Source of the DNA: Escherichia phage vB_EcoM_G5211
Sequence record: MK327947.1
Length of the DNA: 64,000 nucleotides
Direction: 5' to 3' (one strand)
Shown here: positions 13,087 to 41,891 of the stretch, one piece after another
Layout: each line of letters begins with the position of its first letter
How positions within the stretch are numbered: position 1 is the stretch's first letter
The notes under the pieces: generated by a model
Seen by the model: only the letters and a program-made list of their open reading frames with translations
What the model was told of the DNA's origin: nothing
Databases searched by the model: none
Made by a program: the position numbers and the translations under genes

Positions 13087-13094
13087 TATAAATA
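13087..13094 (+). promoter_or_regulatory. T4-type late promoter TATAAATA upstream of gene 9
   Basis: Exact TATAAATA about 28 nt upstream of ATG at 13122. Confidence 0.6.
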
Positions 13095-17836: not shown

Positions 17837-19605
17837 TGATCGAACAGTTAAACATTCGAAAGATCCCTAACGTCGATGGTGTCCCTGGAGAGGGACAGCA
17901 TTCTATTAGCTGGATTAAAAATGGTGAATGTCTAAGCGCAGCAACCACAGAAACAGGACACGAGGGGACGCTTAACCGCGCCCCTTATGCGATTCAAGAA
18001 AATATTGTTCGTCTGGATGAAAATTCTAAGACAACGGTAACAAAAGTTAACGAAGTTGTTACAGCAGTTAATGATATTAAAACTACTTTAGGCGCGGTTG
18101 CTGATGGTAGTATTATTGATATTGTCAATCAAACTATTGCAAAGGTTGAGTCTGTAGAAGAAAATTTAGGAGAAACTTCAAGGACATTACAAACCACAGT
18201 AGATGAACTGGCGGAGACAGGAAAGAAAATTGGTGTTCGTCCGGCAGCAGATCCGAGTACACGAACAATATATGATGATATTTCTTTCATCAAACAAGAA
18301 TTGGGCGCTTTCCCTAACTTCAATATCAACGGTTCTCCAGATCCGGGTAGTTCCGGTTCCGGTATCAAATATCGAGTTATCCAGAATACGGAAGCATTAA
18401 ACAACCACGGTCAGCGAATCCGCCAACTAGAAAACGACTGGCAAGATTCTGACGTTGGAGAGCTAACAAAACAAGTTAACAAAATGCGAAGCGAGCTAGG
18501 CGATACATCACTAGCAACACAGGACAATGTTTATCTTCGTCTTCGCACAAATACTCGCAATATCGCTAGTATATCAAACGAAGTTCAGGAAGTAAAGAAA
18601 GCGATTCTATTTGAATCAATTCCTGATATCGGGACTAAAGTAACTAAGCTACAATCTGATTATACACAGCTTAATGATGAAGTCAACGGCGTTGACGCTG
18701 GTATCCGTCCTCGTTTAACTCTTCTGGAAAATAATATTGGCAATCCTCAAGCCGCTGGAAGTATTGATTATCGATTGACTAATCAAGAACGGGAATGTGT
18801 AGATCTTAAATCTGTTGTCGGTGTTAGTGGTGCTGATGGCCTACGTGGTGAGGTTGCACGAATATCTAACACAGTTGGTACTGATAGTGAGCGTCATACT
18901 ATCGCAGGTCGTCTAAAAATTGTAGAAAACACACAGGGACGACTAGAAGCTAGCGTACAGGATATCGAGCAAATGATCGGCGATCGAGATTCCGGTCTAA
19001 CCGCCGGGGTTATTAAGCTGTCAAGCGACATGTACGGTAATCCAGAAGGAAGCACGCAGCTTGAACAAGATGGGATCGTGAAAACTGTTAAGGAATTGAG
19101 CACATCCAATGCAAGTAAGGTAACAGACGTTCCTGATGATGGTTTCCATTATCTACGTAAGCACGGGGAATGGGTTCAGGTCGCATGGGCGGCTGGTGCA
19201 TTTAAAAACACCGCTCAGATTGATATTACTCTCGACGGACAAGATCAATACAAAGGAATCCCGCTAAACGATATGACCGAAGAAGTTCCTGCGCGTGGAA
19301 TGGTTAAGAGCGAATCTATTGTTACGGTTAACGACAAAGGCTTATTCCGTTGTGTTTTCCGTTGTTCTGTACATGCTGCACATAACGCTACTTTCGTAGT
19401 CGGTATTGCTAAAAATGGTCAGATTGTACATGAGGTACGAAATGGTCAGTATGGAACTGATGATTTAATTAGCTATTCTACCAGTGCTTTCCTAAATATT
19501 GAAAAGGGCGACCGGATCGATATTCGCATTAAGGGCGTATCCGAAGAAACATTAGCGCAACAGCTACAAATTAAAGAGTTCCTCTTTGGAATTTCTCCGG
19601 TATAA
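17836..19605 (+). CDS. wac: Fibritin (whisker/collar protein) with extra C-terminal domain
   Basis: N-terminus matches T4 Wac pattern (GEGQHSISWIKNGE); coiled-coil middle; foldon-like GFHYLRKHGEWVQV followed by about 135 extra residues. Confidence 0.8.
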   Translation: MIEQLNIRKIPNVDGVPGEGQHSISWIKNGECLSAATTETGHEGTLNRAPYAIQENIVRLDENSKTTVTKVNEVVTAVNDIKTTLGAVADGSIIDIVNQTIAKVESVEENLGETSRTLQTTVDELAETGKKIGVRPAADPSTRTIYDDISFIKQELGAFPNFNINGSPDPGSSGSGIKYRVIQNTEALNNHGQRIRQLENDWQDSDVGELTKQVNKMRSELGDTSLATQDNVYLRLRTNTRNIASISNEVQEVKKAILFESIPDIGTKVTKLQSDYTQLNDEVNGVDAGIRPRLTLLENNIGNPQAAGSIDYRLTNQERECVDLKSVVGVSGADGLRGEVARISNTVGTDSERHTIAGRLKIVENTQGRLEASVQDIEQMIGDRDSGLTAGVIKLSSDMYGNPEGSTQLEQDGIVKTVKELSTSNASKVTDVPDDGFHYLRKHGEWVQVAWAAGAFKNTAQIDITLDGQDQYKGIPLNDMTEEVPARGMVKSESIVTVNDKGLFRCVFRCSVHAAHNATFVVGIAKNGQIVHEVRNGQYGTDDLISYSTSAFLNIEKGDRIDIRIKGVSEETLAQQLQIKEFLFGISPV

Positions 19606-19611
19606 GAAATT

Positions 19612-19635
19612 AAAGGGGCGTTAAGCCCCTTTTCC
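19612..19635 (+). terminator. Rho-independent terminator after wac
   Basis: Hairpin ggggc-gttaa-gcccc followed by TTTT; same hairpin in opposite orientation at 53588-53607 and 57610-57630. Confidence 0.65.
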
Positions 19636-19651
19636 GTTTATAGGTGATATT

Positions 19652-20584
19652 ATGTCAGGATATGTAACCAATAACCCAAGAGAATTAAAAGACGCTATTC
19701 TGCGTCGTTTAGGCGCACCAGTAATTAACGTAGAAGTCACAGAAGACCAGATTTACGATTGTATTCAGAGAGCACTAGAACTCTATGGGGAATATCATTT
19801 CGATGGTGTGAATAAAGGATATAAAGTATTTCGTGTTAGTGCAGAGCAAGCGCAACACGGGGTATTTGATTTAAGCGATTCTGGAGTATTCGCAGTAACT
19901 AAAATAATTCGAACAAACGTAGGTAGCGCGGCTACGATGGATGGTACTGCCGTTTATCCGTGGTTTACTGACTTTCTGTTGGGTTTAGCGGGTGTAAATG
20001 GCGGTTTAGGATCTGGCTGTAGTAAATTTTATGGTCCAAATGCAATGGGCGGTGATCTGGGATATTTCGAACAGCTTATGAGCTATCGCGCAACTATGCA
20101 AAATATGCTCAATCCGCTTCCAGATTATTGGTATAATAGCGCAAACGGACAACTTAAGATTACAGGAAACTTCCGAGAAGGTGATCTCATTGTTGTTGAA
20201 TTATATGTTAAAAGCTATATAGACGTTCCTGATATGATCGGTGCGGTTGCTGGTTATGCTCATGCGGGAGGATGTTCTACCGCTGGCGGGATTAGCGCCG
20301 TTTATGATAACCCAACTGCTGGTTTAAGCGGGATTGTTGCTGGCATGGGACCGATCCGTGATAACAAGCAGGGCGCATATAATAACCGTTGGGTTAAAGA
20401 CATGGCAACCGCTTTCACTAAGGAGGTGTGGGGGTCCATCATGGCTAAACATCAAGGTCTGCAATTACCCGGAGGTGTCACTGTTGATGGTATCCGAATC
20501 ATTGAAGAAGCACGCGCCGACATTGAGAAATTGCGACAAGAACTACTTGACTTAGATCCACCATTTGGTATACTAATGATTTGA
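19652..20584 (+). CDS. 13: gp13 neck protein
   Basis: 310 aa (T4 gp13 309 aa); synteny. Confidence 0.8.
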
Positions 20585-20601
20585 TTTATTGGGGGAGTAT
20601 T

Positions 20602-21246
20602 ATGAAAAGACGAAACACATTTTTACGATTGTATGTTACCGAATTTTTATCATCCTCCGGCAAAAAGATATATGGAGGGAAACGACACTCTCCATATAAA
20701 AATTTCGAATCAGACCCGTATGTCGGGTCTGGAGTGATTATAAAACGAGCAATAGAAAAATATGGAAAGGATTGTGTAATTTCCATATCTTGGTCAAAAC
20801 CATTTGAAACACCAGAATTATTGAAAGAGGCCGAAGAATTATTAATAGACGAACTCAAAGACAAATATTCCTATTTTTGCGCTAATTTGGTTAAAGGTGG
20901 ACAAGGTGGTTCATATTATGACAAAGACAAAAATCCACGCGTAGGAAAAAAGAGAACTAAAGAAAGTCGAAATAAAATGTCAGAGGCAGCAAAAAATAGA
21001 AAATGGACAGAAGAAGGGTTGAAACGTAGAATCGAAGCAACAATTAAAATGAAAAAAACAGCAAAAGTCCCAGATTTTTCTGGCGACAAAAATCCAGCCG
21101 CAAAGAAAATACAGGTAGGAGATCTTATTTTTAATACTGGAAAAGAATGCGCGAAATATTTTAATATATGTCAAGCAACGGTCATAGATAGGTGCAAAAA
21201 TCAACGTCCTAAATGGAAAGAATGGAGATATTATGATTCAATATAA
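20602..21246 (+). CDS. Seg-type GIY-YIG homing endonuclease-like protein
   Basis: KIYGGKRHS...DPYVGSG...KRAIEKYG parallels the GIY-YIG core of the ORF at 39653; NUMOD3-like [14 protein letters not shown]; ATG 20602 with RBS ggggag; inserted between genes 13 and 14. Confidence 0.6.
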
Positions 21247-21979
21247 TTCTAACTTATTCGCAAGACTAGAAAATGGTAGCGGATATGATAAAACATACGC
21301 GACGGAGATTTTAAATCCGTGGGTGAATTTTAATTCACATACAAACACCCAGACGTTAGCCGACGTTATGGTCGCCGAAGCTATTCAGATGCGAGGTGTA
21401 GAATTATATTACATCCCTCGTGAATTTGTCAAACCAGATATGATATTTGGTGAGGATGTTCAAAGCAAATTTACTAAAGCATGGAAATTTGCGGCTTATA
21501 TTAACTCATTTGATGGGTATGAAGGAGCGGGTAACTTCTTCTCTAGTTTCGGTTATCAAGCCAATGATGAACTAACTTTTACGGTTAACCCCAACCTATT
21601 CAAGCATCAAGTAGATGATCAAGAGCCAAAATCAGGTGACTTGATTTATATTCCAATGAGTAATGATTTATTTGAAATCTCATATGTAGAGCCATATCAG
21701 CCGTTTTTTCAGGCTGGCAAAAATGCCATGCGTAAAATTATTGCAGAGAAATTCGTGTATAGCGGCGAGGAATTGCGACCAGAATTACAACGCAATGAGG
21801 GAATTAATGTTGATGAGTTTGCGGATCTGGACCTTGCACCGATCACTAATCTGGACGGATTAACAGATATCAACTTAGAACAGTACAAAGAAGATAAGCA
21901 ATTCAGAAGCGAAGGACAAGATTTTATTGACCCGTTTGATCCTATTAATGGCAAGGGTTCACCTTTTGCTAATTTTTGA
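21233..21979 (+). CDS. 14: gp14 neck protein
   Basis: 248 aa (T4 gp14 256 aa); synteny. Confidence 0.8.
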
Positions 21980-22839
21980 TAAATACTCATAAACAAGGGG
22001 GTCAAATGTTCGGTTGGCACTATAATTCGTCAATTAGACGGTATATTGTATTGCTGGGTAATTTATTCTCCGGCGTACAAATTAAAAGGGTGCGTAGTGA
22101 CGGTGAGCGTTTTATTAAAGTTCCTATCACCTACGCAAAGAAAGAAAAATTCATGATGAGTCTGGACAAATATAACAATATCTCAAGCGAGGAAGACGTA
22201 GCAAAGGTAGAAACTATTTTACCGCGTATGTGTCTTTCTTTGATTGATATGACATACGCCCAGAACTTTAAAACAAATATTGCAAATAAGACAGTACCAA
22301 AATATACGGCTGATGGAATCAGGAGTGTGACACAATATAATCCTGTACCATATAAGTTTACTTTCGAGTTGGGGATTTATACACGTAACGAAGATGATAT
22401 GTTTCAGATAATTGAACAGATTCTCCCTTACTTCCAGCCTCATTTTAACTGTAAGATTAAAGAACTACACGGCAATGATGTATGGATTGATCGAGATATT
22501 CAGGTCACAATTAGTTCTATTACTCCAGATGAACAGGTAGGCGAAGATAAGTTTTCTCGTCGTCGTCTTGAGTGGACCATCATGTTTGAGTTCATCGGGT
22601 TTATCTATCCTCCAGCTACCGACGTTAAGGGGGAAATCAGAACGATTTATCTCGATTTTCATGCTAATTCTCGTGAATTAAATCCTAGCGGTAATTTTGA
22701 ATCTGTGGATCATGAGGTCGTTAAACGTGATGTTGAGCAAGAAGAATGGGATGGAACAATCAAAGAATCATATTCTAGTGATATTCCAATACCAGTTGCA
22801 CCAACTCCACCGGGTCCACGTATTGTAAGAGAATTTTAA
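21976..22839 (+). CDS. 15: gp15 tail sheath stabiliser / tail completion protein
   Basis: 287 aa; synteny. Confidence 0.8.
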
Positions 22840-39606: not shown

Positions 39607-39614
39607 TATAAATA
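39607..39614 (+). promoter_or_regulatory. Late-promoter-like TATAAATA upstream of Seg-like gene
   Basis: Exact TATAAATA about 39 nt upstream of ATG at 39653. Confidence 0.4.
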
Positions 39615-39652: not shown

Positions 39653-40384
39653 ATGGCTAAAAGATTTCATTATGTTTATGAGATAAAGAATCTTGTAAAC
39701 GGCAAGCTGTATATAGGTAAACATTCTACTAACAATATGCATGATGGATATATGGGGTCTGGTGACCTTCTTCGTGCTGCATTTGAAAAATATGGCATTG
39801 AGAACTTCGAGAAGCGCATATTAAAAATGTTTGATACCGAGCAGGATGCTTACCTATACGAGAAAGAACTTGTCACTGTTGACATTGTAAAAGATCCCAA
39901 TTATTATAATGTAGTTACTGGCGGTCGTTATGACGGAGACCAGGTATACTCAGACTCTGTACGCGCTAAAATGTCTTCTTCTGCCAAAGAGCGCGTAGAA
40001 CGTGATATGAAAACTGGAAAACTAAAAAAAGCAATAGTAGGTATGCGAGAGAGTGTTTCCGGTAGCTCATGGTATAATGACGGTGTTAAATCTATACGAG
40101 TTCGAGATGGAGAAACTCCACCTGACGGATTCGTCAAGGGTAATTTACATGCTGGGTGGGACCATATAGAATGGACGGAGGAACGCAAAGCCGCTAACAG
40201 GGAAATATGTCTAAGACAAGTCCAAAAGGATCGTGAGTCCGGTGCTCTCGCCGAGCGTGTAGCAAGGCTTAACGATTTTCATACTGGCAGTAAGTGGTAT
40301 AACAACGGGGTAGTTAATAAGGTCGTGAAACGCGGTGACACCCCTCCTGATGGTTTTGTTCTTGGAAAACTTGTTAAAAGGTGA
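39653..40384 (+). CDS. Seg-type GIY-YIG homing endonuclease (SegE-like position)
   Basis: GIY-YIG core HYVYEIKNLVNGKLYIGKHS...YMGSG...EKYG; repeated WYNxGVxxxxVxxGxTPPDGFV modules; between hoc/inh and uvsW as T4 segE. Confidence 0.8.
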   Translation: MAKRFHYVYEIKNLVNGKLYIGKHSTNNMHDGYMGSGDLLRAAFEKYGIENFEKRILKMFDTEQDAYLYEKELVTVDIVKDPNYYNVVTGGRYDGDQVYSDSVRAKMSSSAKERVERDMKTGKLKKAIVGMRESVSGSSWYNDGVKSIRVRDGETPPDGFVKGNLHAGWDHIEWTEERKAANREICLRQVQKDRESGALAERVARLNDFHTGSKWYNNGVVNKVVKRGDTPPDGFVLGKLVKR

Positions 40385-40388
40385 TGTG

Positions 40389-41891
40389 ATGCAAGATATT
40401 CATGTGCATTTTATGAATTATAGTTTTGTTAAAATTGAATGTTCTGATTCAATATCTATGGAATTACGAGACTATTTTTCTTTTGAGATTGAAGGTGCAA
40501 GATTTAATCCTCGTTATCGCTACGGGCAATGGGATGGGCGAATCCGGCTATTTACCTATGAAAACACTCTTCCTATCGGACTGATCAAAACTTTGGGTAT
40601 CTTTGCTAAGAATATGAGCTATTCTGTTTGGATTGATCCCCGTCTTCTGGAAAAGGAGAAAATCACTAAAGAAGATATTGATAGTTGGATCGGTTCGTTG
40701 GCGATATATTCTGGCGCTAATAAGATCACCCCTCATTGGTATCAAAGTGAAGCTGTATTTCAGGGTATACATAATCGTCGTAGAATGTTAGTTTTGCCTA
40801 CTTCTGCTGGTAAAAGTTTGATTGCTTGTTTATTATCTCGATGGTATCTGGAAAACTACGAGGGAAAGGTACTAATCATCGTTCCAACTACTTCTCTTGT
40901 TCTCCAGATGCGTGATGACTTTATTGATTATAGGCTATTCCCTTTTGAGGCTATCCATACAATGATGAGTGGTAGCCAAAAACATCCAGGGGAACGATTG
41001 ATAACTGTTTCAACTTGGCAATCTGCGTGTAAGATGCCTAAAGAGTGGTTCCAGCAATACGGAATGGTTATTGTCGATGAATGTCACAAAGCAACCGCCA
41101 AAAACCTTCAAAATATTGTAAATGATATGACTCATTGCCAATTTAAGATTGGTATGACTGGTTCACCTCGTGACGGTAAGTGTAATGCTTTACAATATGT
41201 TGGATTATTTGGCGATATATCTAGGATCGTAAGTATTGATCGTCTTATGGATGAAGGACAAGTTACAAAACTGAAAATTAACTGTCTATTCCTAAAATAT
41301 ACTGACGATGAATGTACGTCGATTAAGGGGAAAGAATACGCGGAAGAGATCAAATATATAACTTCACACGGTAGACGGAATAAGTTTGTGTGTAATTTGG
41401 CACTAAAACTAGCTAAGAAGGGCGAAAACGTATTCCTGATGTTCCGCAATACTAAGCACGGAAAACTTATGTATGACGCGTTACAGAAGGTACACGACAA
41501 GGTTTATTATATTGACGGTGGAGTTAAGACAGAAGAACGTGATGAATTTAAGAAATTAGCGGAAGGGGAAACAGGGATCATTTGTGTTGCTTCCTATGGT
41601 GTTTTCTCTACTGGTGTTTCAATTAAGAATTTGCACCATGTTATTTTCGGTCATCCCGTGAAGGAATCAACTATCGTTCGTCAGAGTATCGGTCGTGCAT
41701 TGCGTAAACATGGTTCTAAGGATATTGCAACGGTCTGGGATCTTATAGATCATCTGGCGGTGAAGACAAAGAGCAATAATGCTAAGAAACAGTTTAGCCA
41801 CCTTAATTATGCTCTTAAACATGCGCTTGAAAGAATAAAAATTTACAACACCGATCGATTCGAATATGTCACGAAAACAATCGAGATTTAA
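40389..41891 (+). CDS. uvsW: UvsW DNA/RNA helicase
   Basis: N-terminus and core parallel T4 UvsW (HWYQ...RRRMLVLPTSAGKS, DECH box, VASYGVFSTG...KNLHHV); ATG 40389. Confidence 0.9.
   Translation: MQDIHVHFMNYSFVKIECSDSISMELRDYFSFEIEGARFNPRYRYGQWDGRIRLFTYENTLPIGLIKTLGIFAKNMSYSVWIDPRLLEKEKITKEDIDSWIGSLAIYSGANKITPHWYQSEAVFQGIHNRRRMLVLPTSAGKSLIACLLSRWYLENYEGKVLIIVPTTSLVLQMRDDFIDYRLFPFEAIHTMMSGSQKHPGERLITVSTWQSACKMPKEWFQQYGMVIVDECHKATAKNLQNIVNDMTHCQFKIGMTGSPRDGKCNALQYVGLFGDISRIVSIDRLMDEGQVTKLKINCLFLKYTDDECTSIKGKEYAEEIKYITSHGRRNKFVCNLALKLAKKGENVFLMFRNTKHGKLMYDALQKVHDKVYYIDGGVKTEERDEFKKLAEGETGIICVASYGVFSTGVSIKNLHHVIFGHPVKESTIVRQSIGRALRKHGSKDIATVWDLIDHLAVKTKSNNAKKQFSHLNYALKHALERIKIYNTDRFEYVTKTIEI

Follow-up and report, generated by a model that had tools for sequence, protein, structure and literature searches.

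An endonuclease gene between neck genes 13 and 14

What is the gene that separates the two neck genes of an RB49-like phage, and does it still encode a working homing endonuclease? The window analyzed here, 64,000 nucleotides from Escherichia phage vB_EcoM_G5211 (MK327947.1), matches Escherichia phage vB_EcoM_G37-3 (MK327941.1), an RB49-like Krischvirus, at 100% identity, and we refer to the locus by the latter name. The gene, termed here the 13/14 ORF, begins with an ATG at 20602 and ends with a TAA at 21244-21246. Its GenBank entry is QBO64748.1, labelled "putative group I intron endonuclease." An original prediction, made from the letters of the window, had placed a Seg-type GIY-YIG endonuclease-like gene at this position between genes 13 and 14. 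Its coordinates, motifs, and context all proved correct, and gp13 and gp14 were clearly identified (Table 1).

RB49 lacks the insert, and only 36 nt separate its genes 13 and 14. The Shine-Dalgarno (SD) sequence of the 13/14 ORF is the left arm of the stem-loop GGGGGAGTATTCCCCC found in RB49, and at its other end the ORF shares its last 14 nt with gene 14. An alternative TTG start at 20581, overlapping the gene 13 stop, would give a protein of 221 aa. Since the ATG at 20602 has an SD sequence and agrees with the family alignment, the shorter, 214-aa form is the likely product. Relative to most homologs, the G37-3 protein has an N-terminal extension of 3 to 6 residues (MKRRNTF).

Table 1. Features of the gene 13/14 region of G37-3 (positions in the window)
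Feature	Position	Strand	Basis or detail
Gene 13 (neck/head-tail adaptor), upstream flank	19652..20584	+	PHROG head-tail adaptor, 4e-40
30-bp patch, gene 13 3' end, 12 substitutions versus RB49/Brandy	20546..20575	+	Putative sigma-70-like promoter
Shine-Dalgarno sequence GGGGGAG of 13/14 ORF	20591..20597	+	Comparison with RB49 empty site
Free-standing GIY-YIG homing endonuclease gene (13/14 ORF), 214 aa	20602..21246	+	ORF/translation, PHROG 314, 11 homologs
N-terminal catalytic domain, SegF-type GIY-YIG, aa 1-105	20602..20916	+	Y11, Y24, G26, R28, Y40-G42-S43-G44, K53-Y54-G55, E78, N95
NUMOD3-like linker motif, aa 110-127	20929..20982	+	Pfam NUMOD3, E 0.011; conserved in family alignment
C-terminal I-TevI-type helix-turn-helix DNA-binding domain, aa 161-210	21082..21231	+	Pfam I-TevI_DNA-bd, E 3e-4
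Gene 14 translation start (SD GGAG 21224-21227, ATG 21233-21235)	21224..21235	+	Inside last 13/14 ORF codons
Foreign 5' segment of gene 14	21233..21349	+	About 59% identical to RB49, then 95 nt of perfect identity
Gene 14 (neck/head closure), downstream flank, probable target gene	21233..21979	+	Pfam T4_neck-protein, 4e-101

The 13/14 protein belongs to the Seg group

The whole 13/14 protein matched PHROG 314 ("homing endonuclease") with an E value of 9e-36, and its N-terminal 105 aa alone matched the same family at 5e-20; T4 SegA to SegF match it at 1e-23 to 5e-57. The original prediction had also held that the protein shares a core with the clear Seg-type enzyme encoded at 39653 of the window. 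All of the quoted motifs are present in the translation, and BLASTP aligned the two proteins at 31% identity over 166 aa (E 1e-8); with the PHROG matches, the likeness goes well beyond chance. SegA to SegG, I-TevI, and I-TevII were taken from the T4T record and compared by BLASTP, and the homology to the Segs was found to run end to end, beyond short motifs. A search of 5.8 billion proteins returned eleven full-length homologs with 55 to 65% identity.

Neither Pfam GIY-YIG (PF01541) nor SegE_GIY-YIG (PF19835) matched the 13/14 protein or its relative P0007 at an E value of ≤1. Three canonical Segs, namely, that at 39653, the Makalu type described below, and T4 SegC, passed the PF19835 cut-off, and the 39653 Seg also passed that of PF01541, indicating that the nuclease domain of the 13/14 protein is atypical. 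Among these five proteins, the miss was specific to the 13/14 family. It is no evidence against the fold. An AlphaFold2 model built from 13 sequences was confident over residues 10 to 90 (pLDDT about 90), with its elements in the order strand-strand-helix-strand-helix, as expected for the GIY-YIG core fold. Sequence searches of the PDB returned the I-TevI DNA-binding domain as the only match. The canonical Seg at 39653 reached 1LN0 only at an E value of 0.69; catalytic residues were therefore not settled by sequence comparison with I-TevI, and a fold search was used.

The NUMOD3-like motif of the original prediction recurs across the family alignment and is a putative NUMOD3, its Pfam match of 16.1 bits being under the cut-off of 20.4. 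For the C-terminal domain, the single sequence scored 20.9 bits with Pfam I-TevI_DNA-bd, below the cut-off of 27, and a family profile matched the I-TevI DNA-binding domain in the PDB (1I3J) with an E value of 1.3e-5. No Cys4 cluster or zinc finger was found in the 13/14 protein, in which cysteine occurs only at positions 58, 93, 183, 190, and 198. Judged by these alignments, the protein is composed of a SegF-type nuclease, a NUMOD3-like motif, and an I-TevI-type helix-turn-helix (HTH).

Comparison with T4 endonucleases

T4 SegF is a free-standing GIY-YIG endonuclease encoded between soc and gene 56, where it brings about intronless homing and the exclusion of T2 gene 56. SegF, and not SegC, was the closest T4 protein for the N-terminal domain: residues 1 to 103 aligned with SegF residues 1 to 101 at 37% identity, with only two gap positions. 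Unlike SegA to SegE, both proteins have F-Y/L-R-x-Y in place of GIY and Y-[AG]-G-K-[HR] in place of YIG, with 13 rather than 11 residues between the tyrosines, and both carry N-P..D.Y.GSG, WSK, E-x-E, C-x-N, and GGQGG. They are also alike in that the N-terminal domain matches only PHROG 314, with no secondary GIY-YIG PHROGs, and in that the cassette lacks a late promoter of its own and lies beside an essential or conserved gene. SegF is listed as active, with gene 56 as its homing target (PMC2988022, Table 1), and it has been described as a hybrid (PMC2988022). The C-terminal halves of SegF and the 13/14 protein are unrelated (BLASTP E 0.35), and the genomic site is 13/14, not soc/56; because both the C-terminal domain and the site differ, the 13/14 protein is not a SegF ortholog.

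The internal terminator hairpin of segF is not found at the same place in the 13/14 ORF. A perfect 11-bp hairpin, UAUAUGGAGGG...CUCUCCAUAUA, occurs at 20669-20698, over the YGGKRHSPY codons, and similar hairpins with different bases are present in the homologs of phages Prick1 and SP18. As a conserved element this hairpin was rejected: it is missing in phage MX01 and in L017, it has no U-tract, and it lies off the position of the segF internal terminator.

After SegF, the best full-length T4 match was SegC (32% over 195 aa), which has a similar C-terminal layout of NUMOD3 and HTH but a canonical GIY-YIG motif. The T4T record shows T4 segC flanked by genes 5.1 and 5.4, and a review places it at 5.1/5.3 (PMC2988022). 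I-TevI is the td intron endonuclease of T4, whereas the 13/14 gene is not intron encoded. The similarity of the I-TevI nuclease domain to the 13/14 protein is marginal; a short loop replaces the I-TevI helix with R27 and H31, and the I-TevI zinc finger is absent.

The Seg at 39653-40384 (+) is itself a SegE homolog (38% identity over the full length, E 8e-53), with the ...NNG...PPDGF.KG repeat duplicated at its C terminus. The gene immediately downstream encodes a UvsW homolog (40335-41891; 55% identity to T4 UvsW), just as uvsW follows segE in T4. A perfect late-promoter motif, TATAAATA, is found at 39607-39614, 39 nt upstream of its ATG.

Putative catalytic residues are conserved

The original prediction had described the first GIY element (RLYV) of the 13/14 protein as degenerate. 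This part was not borne out. The RLY/IYGG pair is invariant across the family and matches the corresponding motifs of the active T4 SegF (RTY/WYAG), and it is not degenerate. On the alignment, the RLY element is a conserved subtype signature and not a lesion.

Residues Y11, Y24, G26, Y40, G42-S43-G44, K53-Y54, E78, N95, and G99-G100 were invariant in 11 family members and two canonical relatives. E78 and N95 align with E75 and N90 of I-TevI and with the Glu and Asn of SegF. Y24 and G26 are the Tyr and Gly of the second motif (Y17 and G19 in I-TevI), with Gly as the middle residue instead of Ile or Val. Position 28 is H or R in every Seg and R in the 13/14 protein. Residues 20 to 28 of I-TevI are missing from all of the Seg proteins in the alignment, and with them the I-TevI helix that carries the catalytic R27; R28 may stand in for it.

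The first tyrosine is ambiguous in sequence alignments. Ungapped alignments put T13, which is variable, at the position of I-TevI Y6, while Y11 is invariant in all of the family members and in SegF. In the AlphaFold2 model, the hairpin (strands 7 to 17 and 20 to 30, joined by a two-residue turn) has a register that places Y11 opposite G26. The family alignment, the invariance of Y11, the variability of position 13, and this modelled register lead us to favor Y11 over T13 as the first catalytic tyrosine. The original prediction had named loss of catalytic residues, with no homology beyond short motifs, as its refutation, and the alignments show the opposite: E78, N95, both motif tyrosines, and the basic residue R28, the putative counterpart of the catalytic Arg, are all kept.

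Insert junctions and mosaic flanks

The foreign block of G37-3 is 748 bp long (20602-21349) and comprises the 13/14 ORF together with the first ~117 nt of gene 14. This gene 14 segment is identical in phage Brandy (MZ504876.1). The left junction, after position 20601, falls in the loop of the RB49 stem-loop. In the RB49 13-14 spacer (L003 1492-1507), the stem-loop at the empty site reads GGGGG-AGTATT-CCCCC. Arbiol et al. found RB49 recombination crossovers in the loops of GGGG...CCCC stem-loops (PMC2839356), and the "PeSL" cassettes of RB49 and phi1, which carry GGGG...CCCC stem-loops, are reported to be recombination hot spots with crossovers in the loop (PMC2839356).

Carriers from other genera were compared with relatives that lack the gene. 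In Prick1 compared with KLB21 (Slopekvirus), the cassette lies exactly at the gene 14 start, the original GGAGGAAAA-ATG is reused, and gene 14 differs only at nt 5 to 7. In MX01 compared with QL01 (Dhakavirus), the endonuclease ATG stands in place of the gene 14 ATG. Gene 14 then shows 21 mostly synonymous differences in nt 4 to 90 and none from there to nt 470, and the 496 nt compared in gene 13 differ at only 2 positions. In SP18 compared with P896 (Gaprivervirus), the differences are concentrated in two stretches, the final 21 nt of gene 13 and nt 4 to 90 of gene 14. Dense tracts of polymorphism abutting an insert are the pattern left by homing with co-conversion, which suggests that the target is either the 13/14 junction or the gene 14 5' end. 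A search of phage records and two metagenomic contigs revealed no donor of the foreign block closer than ~67% nucleotide identity.

Sporadic distribution of the 13/14 family

A tblastn search of 50,697 phage records returned family-level homologs with 52 to 60% identity. Among the matches listed, nearly all of the homologs adjoin a gene whose annotation reads neck protein or head closure. The location was gp13/gp14 in every context examined, representing four phage genera and two metagenomic contigs. These contexts included those of MX01 (Dhakavirus), SP18 (Gaprivervirus), Prick1 (a Klebsiella T4-like phage), and the two contigs; for Prick1, the genus context comes from its closest relative without a homing endonuclease gene (HEG), KLB21, a Slopekvirus. 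The last codons of the endonuclease gene (TGGnnnTATG) contain the gene 14 start in MX01, SP18, Prick1, L017, and L018.

Records were counted as carriers when they matched at least 80% of the HEG-containing query. By this measure the endonuclease gene was carried by 2 of 63 records in the Krischvirus search, 4 of 75 in the search with MX01 (Dhakavirus), 9 of 36 with SP18 (Gaprivervirus), and 16 of 129 with Prick1 (Slopekvirus). The gene is therefore present sporadically among near-identical relatives. With sequence, fold, genomic context, and presence or absence among relatives all in agreement, the assignment of the 13/14 ORF as a Seg-type GIY-YIG homing endonuclease gene is well backed. It is probably an ordinary selfish mobile gene, not a decaying relic, of a family that is widespread in T4-like phages.

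Homologs already are annotated as homing endonucleases in many records. Our literature search found no paper describing the 13/14 family; only a different "segC," that of Phi1, is mentioned (PMC2839356). The "segC" of SP18 is a member of the 13/14 family (55% identity), and the label is a misnomer. In the SP18 record (GQ981382.1), the annotated start of gene 14 lies ~100 nt too far downstream (L006 1826-1928); its real start, MRNSYDASLFARLEDG..., lies within the end of the endonuclease gene, matching the overlap in the other phages.

Proposed homing pathway

We consider the 13/14 ORF probably to encode an active free-standing (intronless) homing endonuclease of the T4 Seg group, whose target would lie either where genes 13 and 14 meet or in the gene 14 5' end. 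The N-terminal, SegF-subtype GIY-YIG domain would cut, and the NUMOD3-like linker would join it to the I-TevI-type HTH that reads the target DNA. When a carrier and a relative without the gene infect the same cell, the enzyme would cut at the unoccupied gp13/gp14 junction or within the initial ~100 nt of gene 14. Repair of the break from the donor genome would transfer the gene along with the neighboring start of gene 14. Carriers presumably are protected because the insertion splits or rewrites the target site. The cassette is placed exactly at the gene 14 start and has taken over the old ribosome-binding site (RBS), and its last endonuclease codons give a new SD sequence and ATG to the essential gene 14. 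The comparisons establish the identity and fold of the protein, its retained motif residues, and the conserved position, sporadic distribution, and mosaic flanks of the gene; cleavage activity, target location, and promoter use are inferred.

The G37-3 copy is intact and probably active

The original prediction had left open whether the gene is active or decaying. Clustering at 90% identity yielded, on about 22 contigs, six distinct alleles with an intact 214-aa ORF, namely, those of G37-3, G5211, and four further alleles. Decay was seen only in Brandy, the one frameshifted copy on record, which is otherwise 99% identical. A 1-bp deletion in an A-run at ~20661 (L004 ~1562) changes GGCAAAAAG to GGT-AAAAG and shifts the frame at codon ~20, and the Brandy annotation keeps only the last 141 aa. 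This frameshift may reflect genuine decay or an error in sequencing the homopolymer. The frameshifted element persists nonetheless, which indicates that it can survive without the nuclease, plausibly because the SD sequence and ATG of gene 14 lie inside it.

Selection was assessed across the family. Nonsynonymous divergence (pN) was 0.23 to 0.36 in the nuclease domain and 0.20 to 0.38 in the binding domain. Synonymous divergence (pS) was saturated (0.6 to 0.87, with 0.66 to 0.82 set against the nuclease-domain pN), so that dN/dS can be given only as an upper bound. Low pN against saturated pS in both domains indicates that both are under purifying selection. The sequence evidence thus favors the active side of the original alternative in G37-3, whose copy is intact and probably active.

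The strongest competing explanation is that the gene is inactive or decaying and is kept since its 3' codons carry the RBS and start codon of the essential gene 14. We judge this improbable, though not negligible. It would account for the truncation of the nuclease domain in Brandy, the position of the gene 14 SD sequence and ATG inside the ORF, the missing Pfam GIY-YIG match, and the rarity of the element in Krischvirus. However, the Brandy lesion, situated in a homopolymer, could have arisen in sequencing, and the ORF is full length in all six alleles noted above. Every family-invariant residue is kept, the nuclease domain is constrained like the binding domain, and the unusual motif is the SegF motif rather than a lesion.

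Much less probable is a domesticated derivative that now acts mainly as a DNA-binding or regulatory protein of the neck-gene operon or as a weapon that excludes competitor phages, in neither case spreading itself. In favor, I-TevI also represses its own expression, the 13/14 protein retains an I-TevI-type DNA-binding domain, and in all of the genera its gene is closely tied to the start of gene 14. Against this, a gene found so sporadically among near-identical phages is unlikely to have a host-beneficial core function, a pure binder would not need conserved catalytic motifs, and marker exclusion is simply the phenotype of homing. The remaining alternative, a group I intron-encoded endonuclease as in the GenBank record, draws on that annotation and on a DNA-binding domain resembling that of intron-encoded I-TevI, but it can be dismissed, since the ORF lies between two complete, separate genes, neither of which is interrupted, the RB49 empty site is only a short spacer, and an Rfam scan of 19400-22200 gave neither a group I intron nor any other credible match, even at an E value of ≤1. 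Contrary to its GenBank label, the 13/14 ORF is not intron encoded.

Other endonuclease genes at the same site

The gp13/gp14 gap of Krischvirus holds at least three alternative endonuclease genes across isolates. The G37-3 type (slot 20585-21232) encodes the 214-aa protein with a SegF-like nuclease. In Makalu_001, KFS-EC, and PHB13, the same gap is occupied by a gene for a canonical Seg of 271 aa (L002 1486-2390 in Makalu_001; L015 1912-2816 in PHB13). This type combines GIY-YIG, NUMOD3, and HTH, a layout like that of the 13/14 protein with its putative NUMOD3, and uses the same intergenic slot of the same genus, but it is only 30% identical to the 13/14 protein, has the canonical motif HYVY...IYVG, and is inserted upstream of the GGGGG/CCCCC stem-loop without overlapping gene 14. 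The third type, in Phi1, ECD7, and kvi, is the 194-aa "segC," which lies in the 13/14 slot and overlaps the gene 14 ATG (L014 1916-2558 in Phi1). The Phi1 protein has a canonical Seg nuclease domain, 49% identical to the Makalu type; its likeness to the G37-3 family, to which it comes closest there, is confined to the C-terminal domain.

Putative promoter of the 13/14 ORF

The nearly synonymous substitutions of the patch at the 3' end of gene 13 create the sequence TTGACT-16-TGgTATACT (20547-20574) just upstream of the 13/14 ORF. In a promoter scan it scored 10 of 12 matches plus an upstream TG; sigma-70-like consensus matches were not enriched in the region (8 found versus 6.8 expected). Apart from G37-3, the patch was found only in Krischvirus phages with the 271-aa Seg (KFS-EC, Makalu_001/002, MIZ4/5, and PHB13). 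This putative sigma-70-like site probably serves the 13/14 ORF in G37-3. The patch also may be a cleavage-resistant site of the rival 271-aa enzyme.

No T4-type late promoter (TATAAATA) for the 13/14 ORF was found nearby; the nearest perfect site on the + strand is at 13087, and a site with one mismatch occurs at 20695, within the ORF. The SD sequence and AUG of the 13/14 ORF would be sequestered by a predicted hairpin (z -2.7). It was rejected as a shared element, as it was not consistently present in relatives.

These observations allow a broader, more speculative proposal, which we put forward tentatively. The gp13/gp14 junction may be a contested landing pad on which at least three endonuclease lineages replace one another. 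The 13/14 lineage would combine a SegF-type nuclease cartridge with a junction-specific, I-TevI-type binding domain and would be inserted exactly at the gene 14 start codon, hijacking the gene 14 RBS and supplying a new one, so that the host is left without a clean deletion. G37-3 would in addition carry a rival's 30-bp promoter-bearing, and possibly immunity-conferring, patch.

Implications

The analysis corrects the database labels "group I intron endonuclease," "segC," and "hypothetical protein" given to members of this family. It also shows that the odd SegF motif marks a nuclease subtype wider than SegF itself, able to pair with another kind of DNA-binding domain. The case offers a testable target, either the junction of genes 13 and 14 or the gene 14 5' end, and in G37-3 and Brandy it supplies a natural pair of intact and frameshifted copies for homing experiments. 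If the patch in gene 13 is the resistant site of a rival enzyme, the G37-3 locus would be a mosaic of two homing histories, and if the junction is indeed a contested landing pad, the locus would preserve a natural history of competition between endonucleases. The mosaic genomes of T4-like phages are shaped by free-standing homing endonucleases, which also account for the local exclusion of markers in mixed infections. The 13/14 ORF is no new kind of system, but it adds a well-delimited example inside a conserved virion module.
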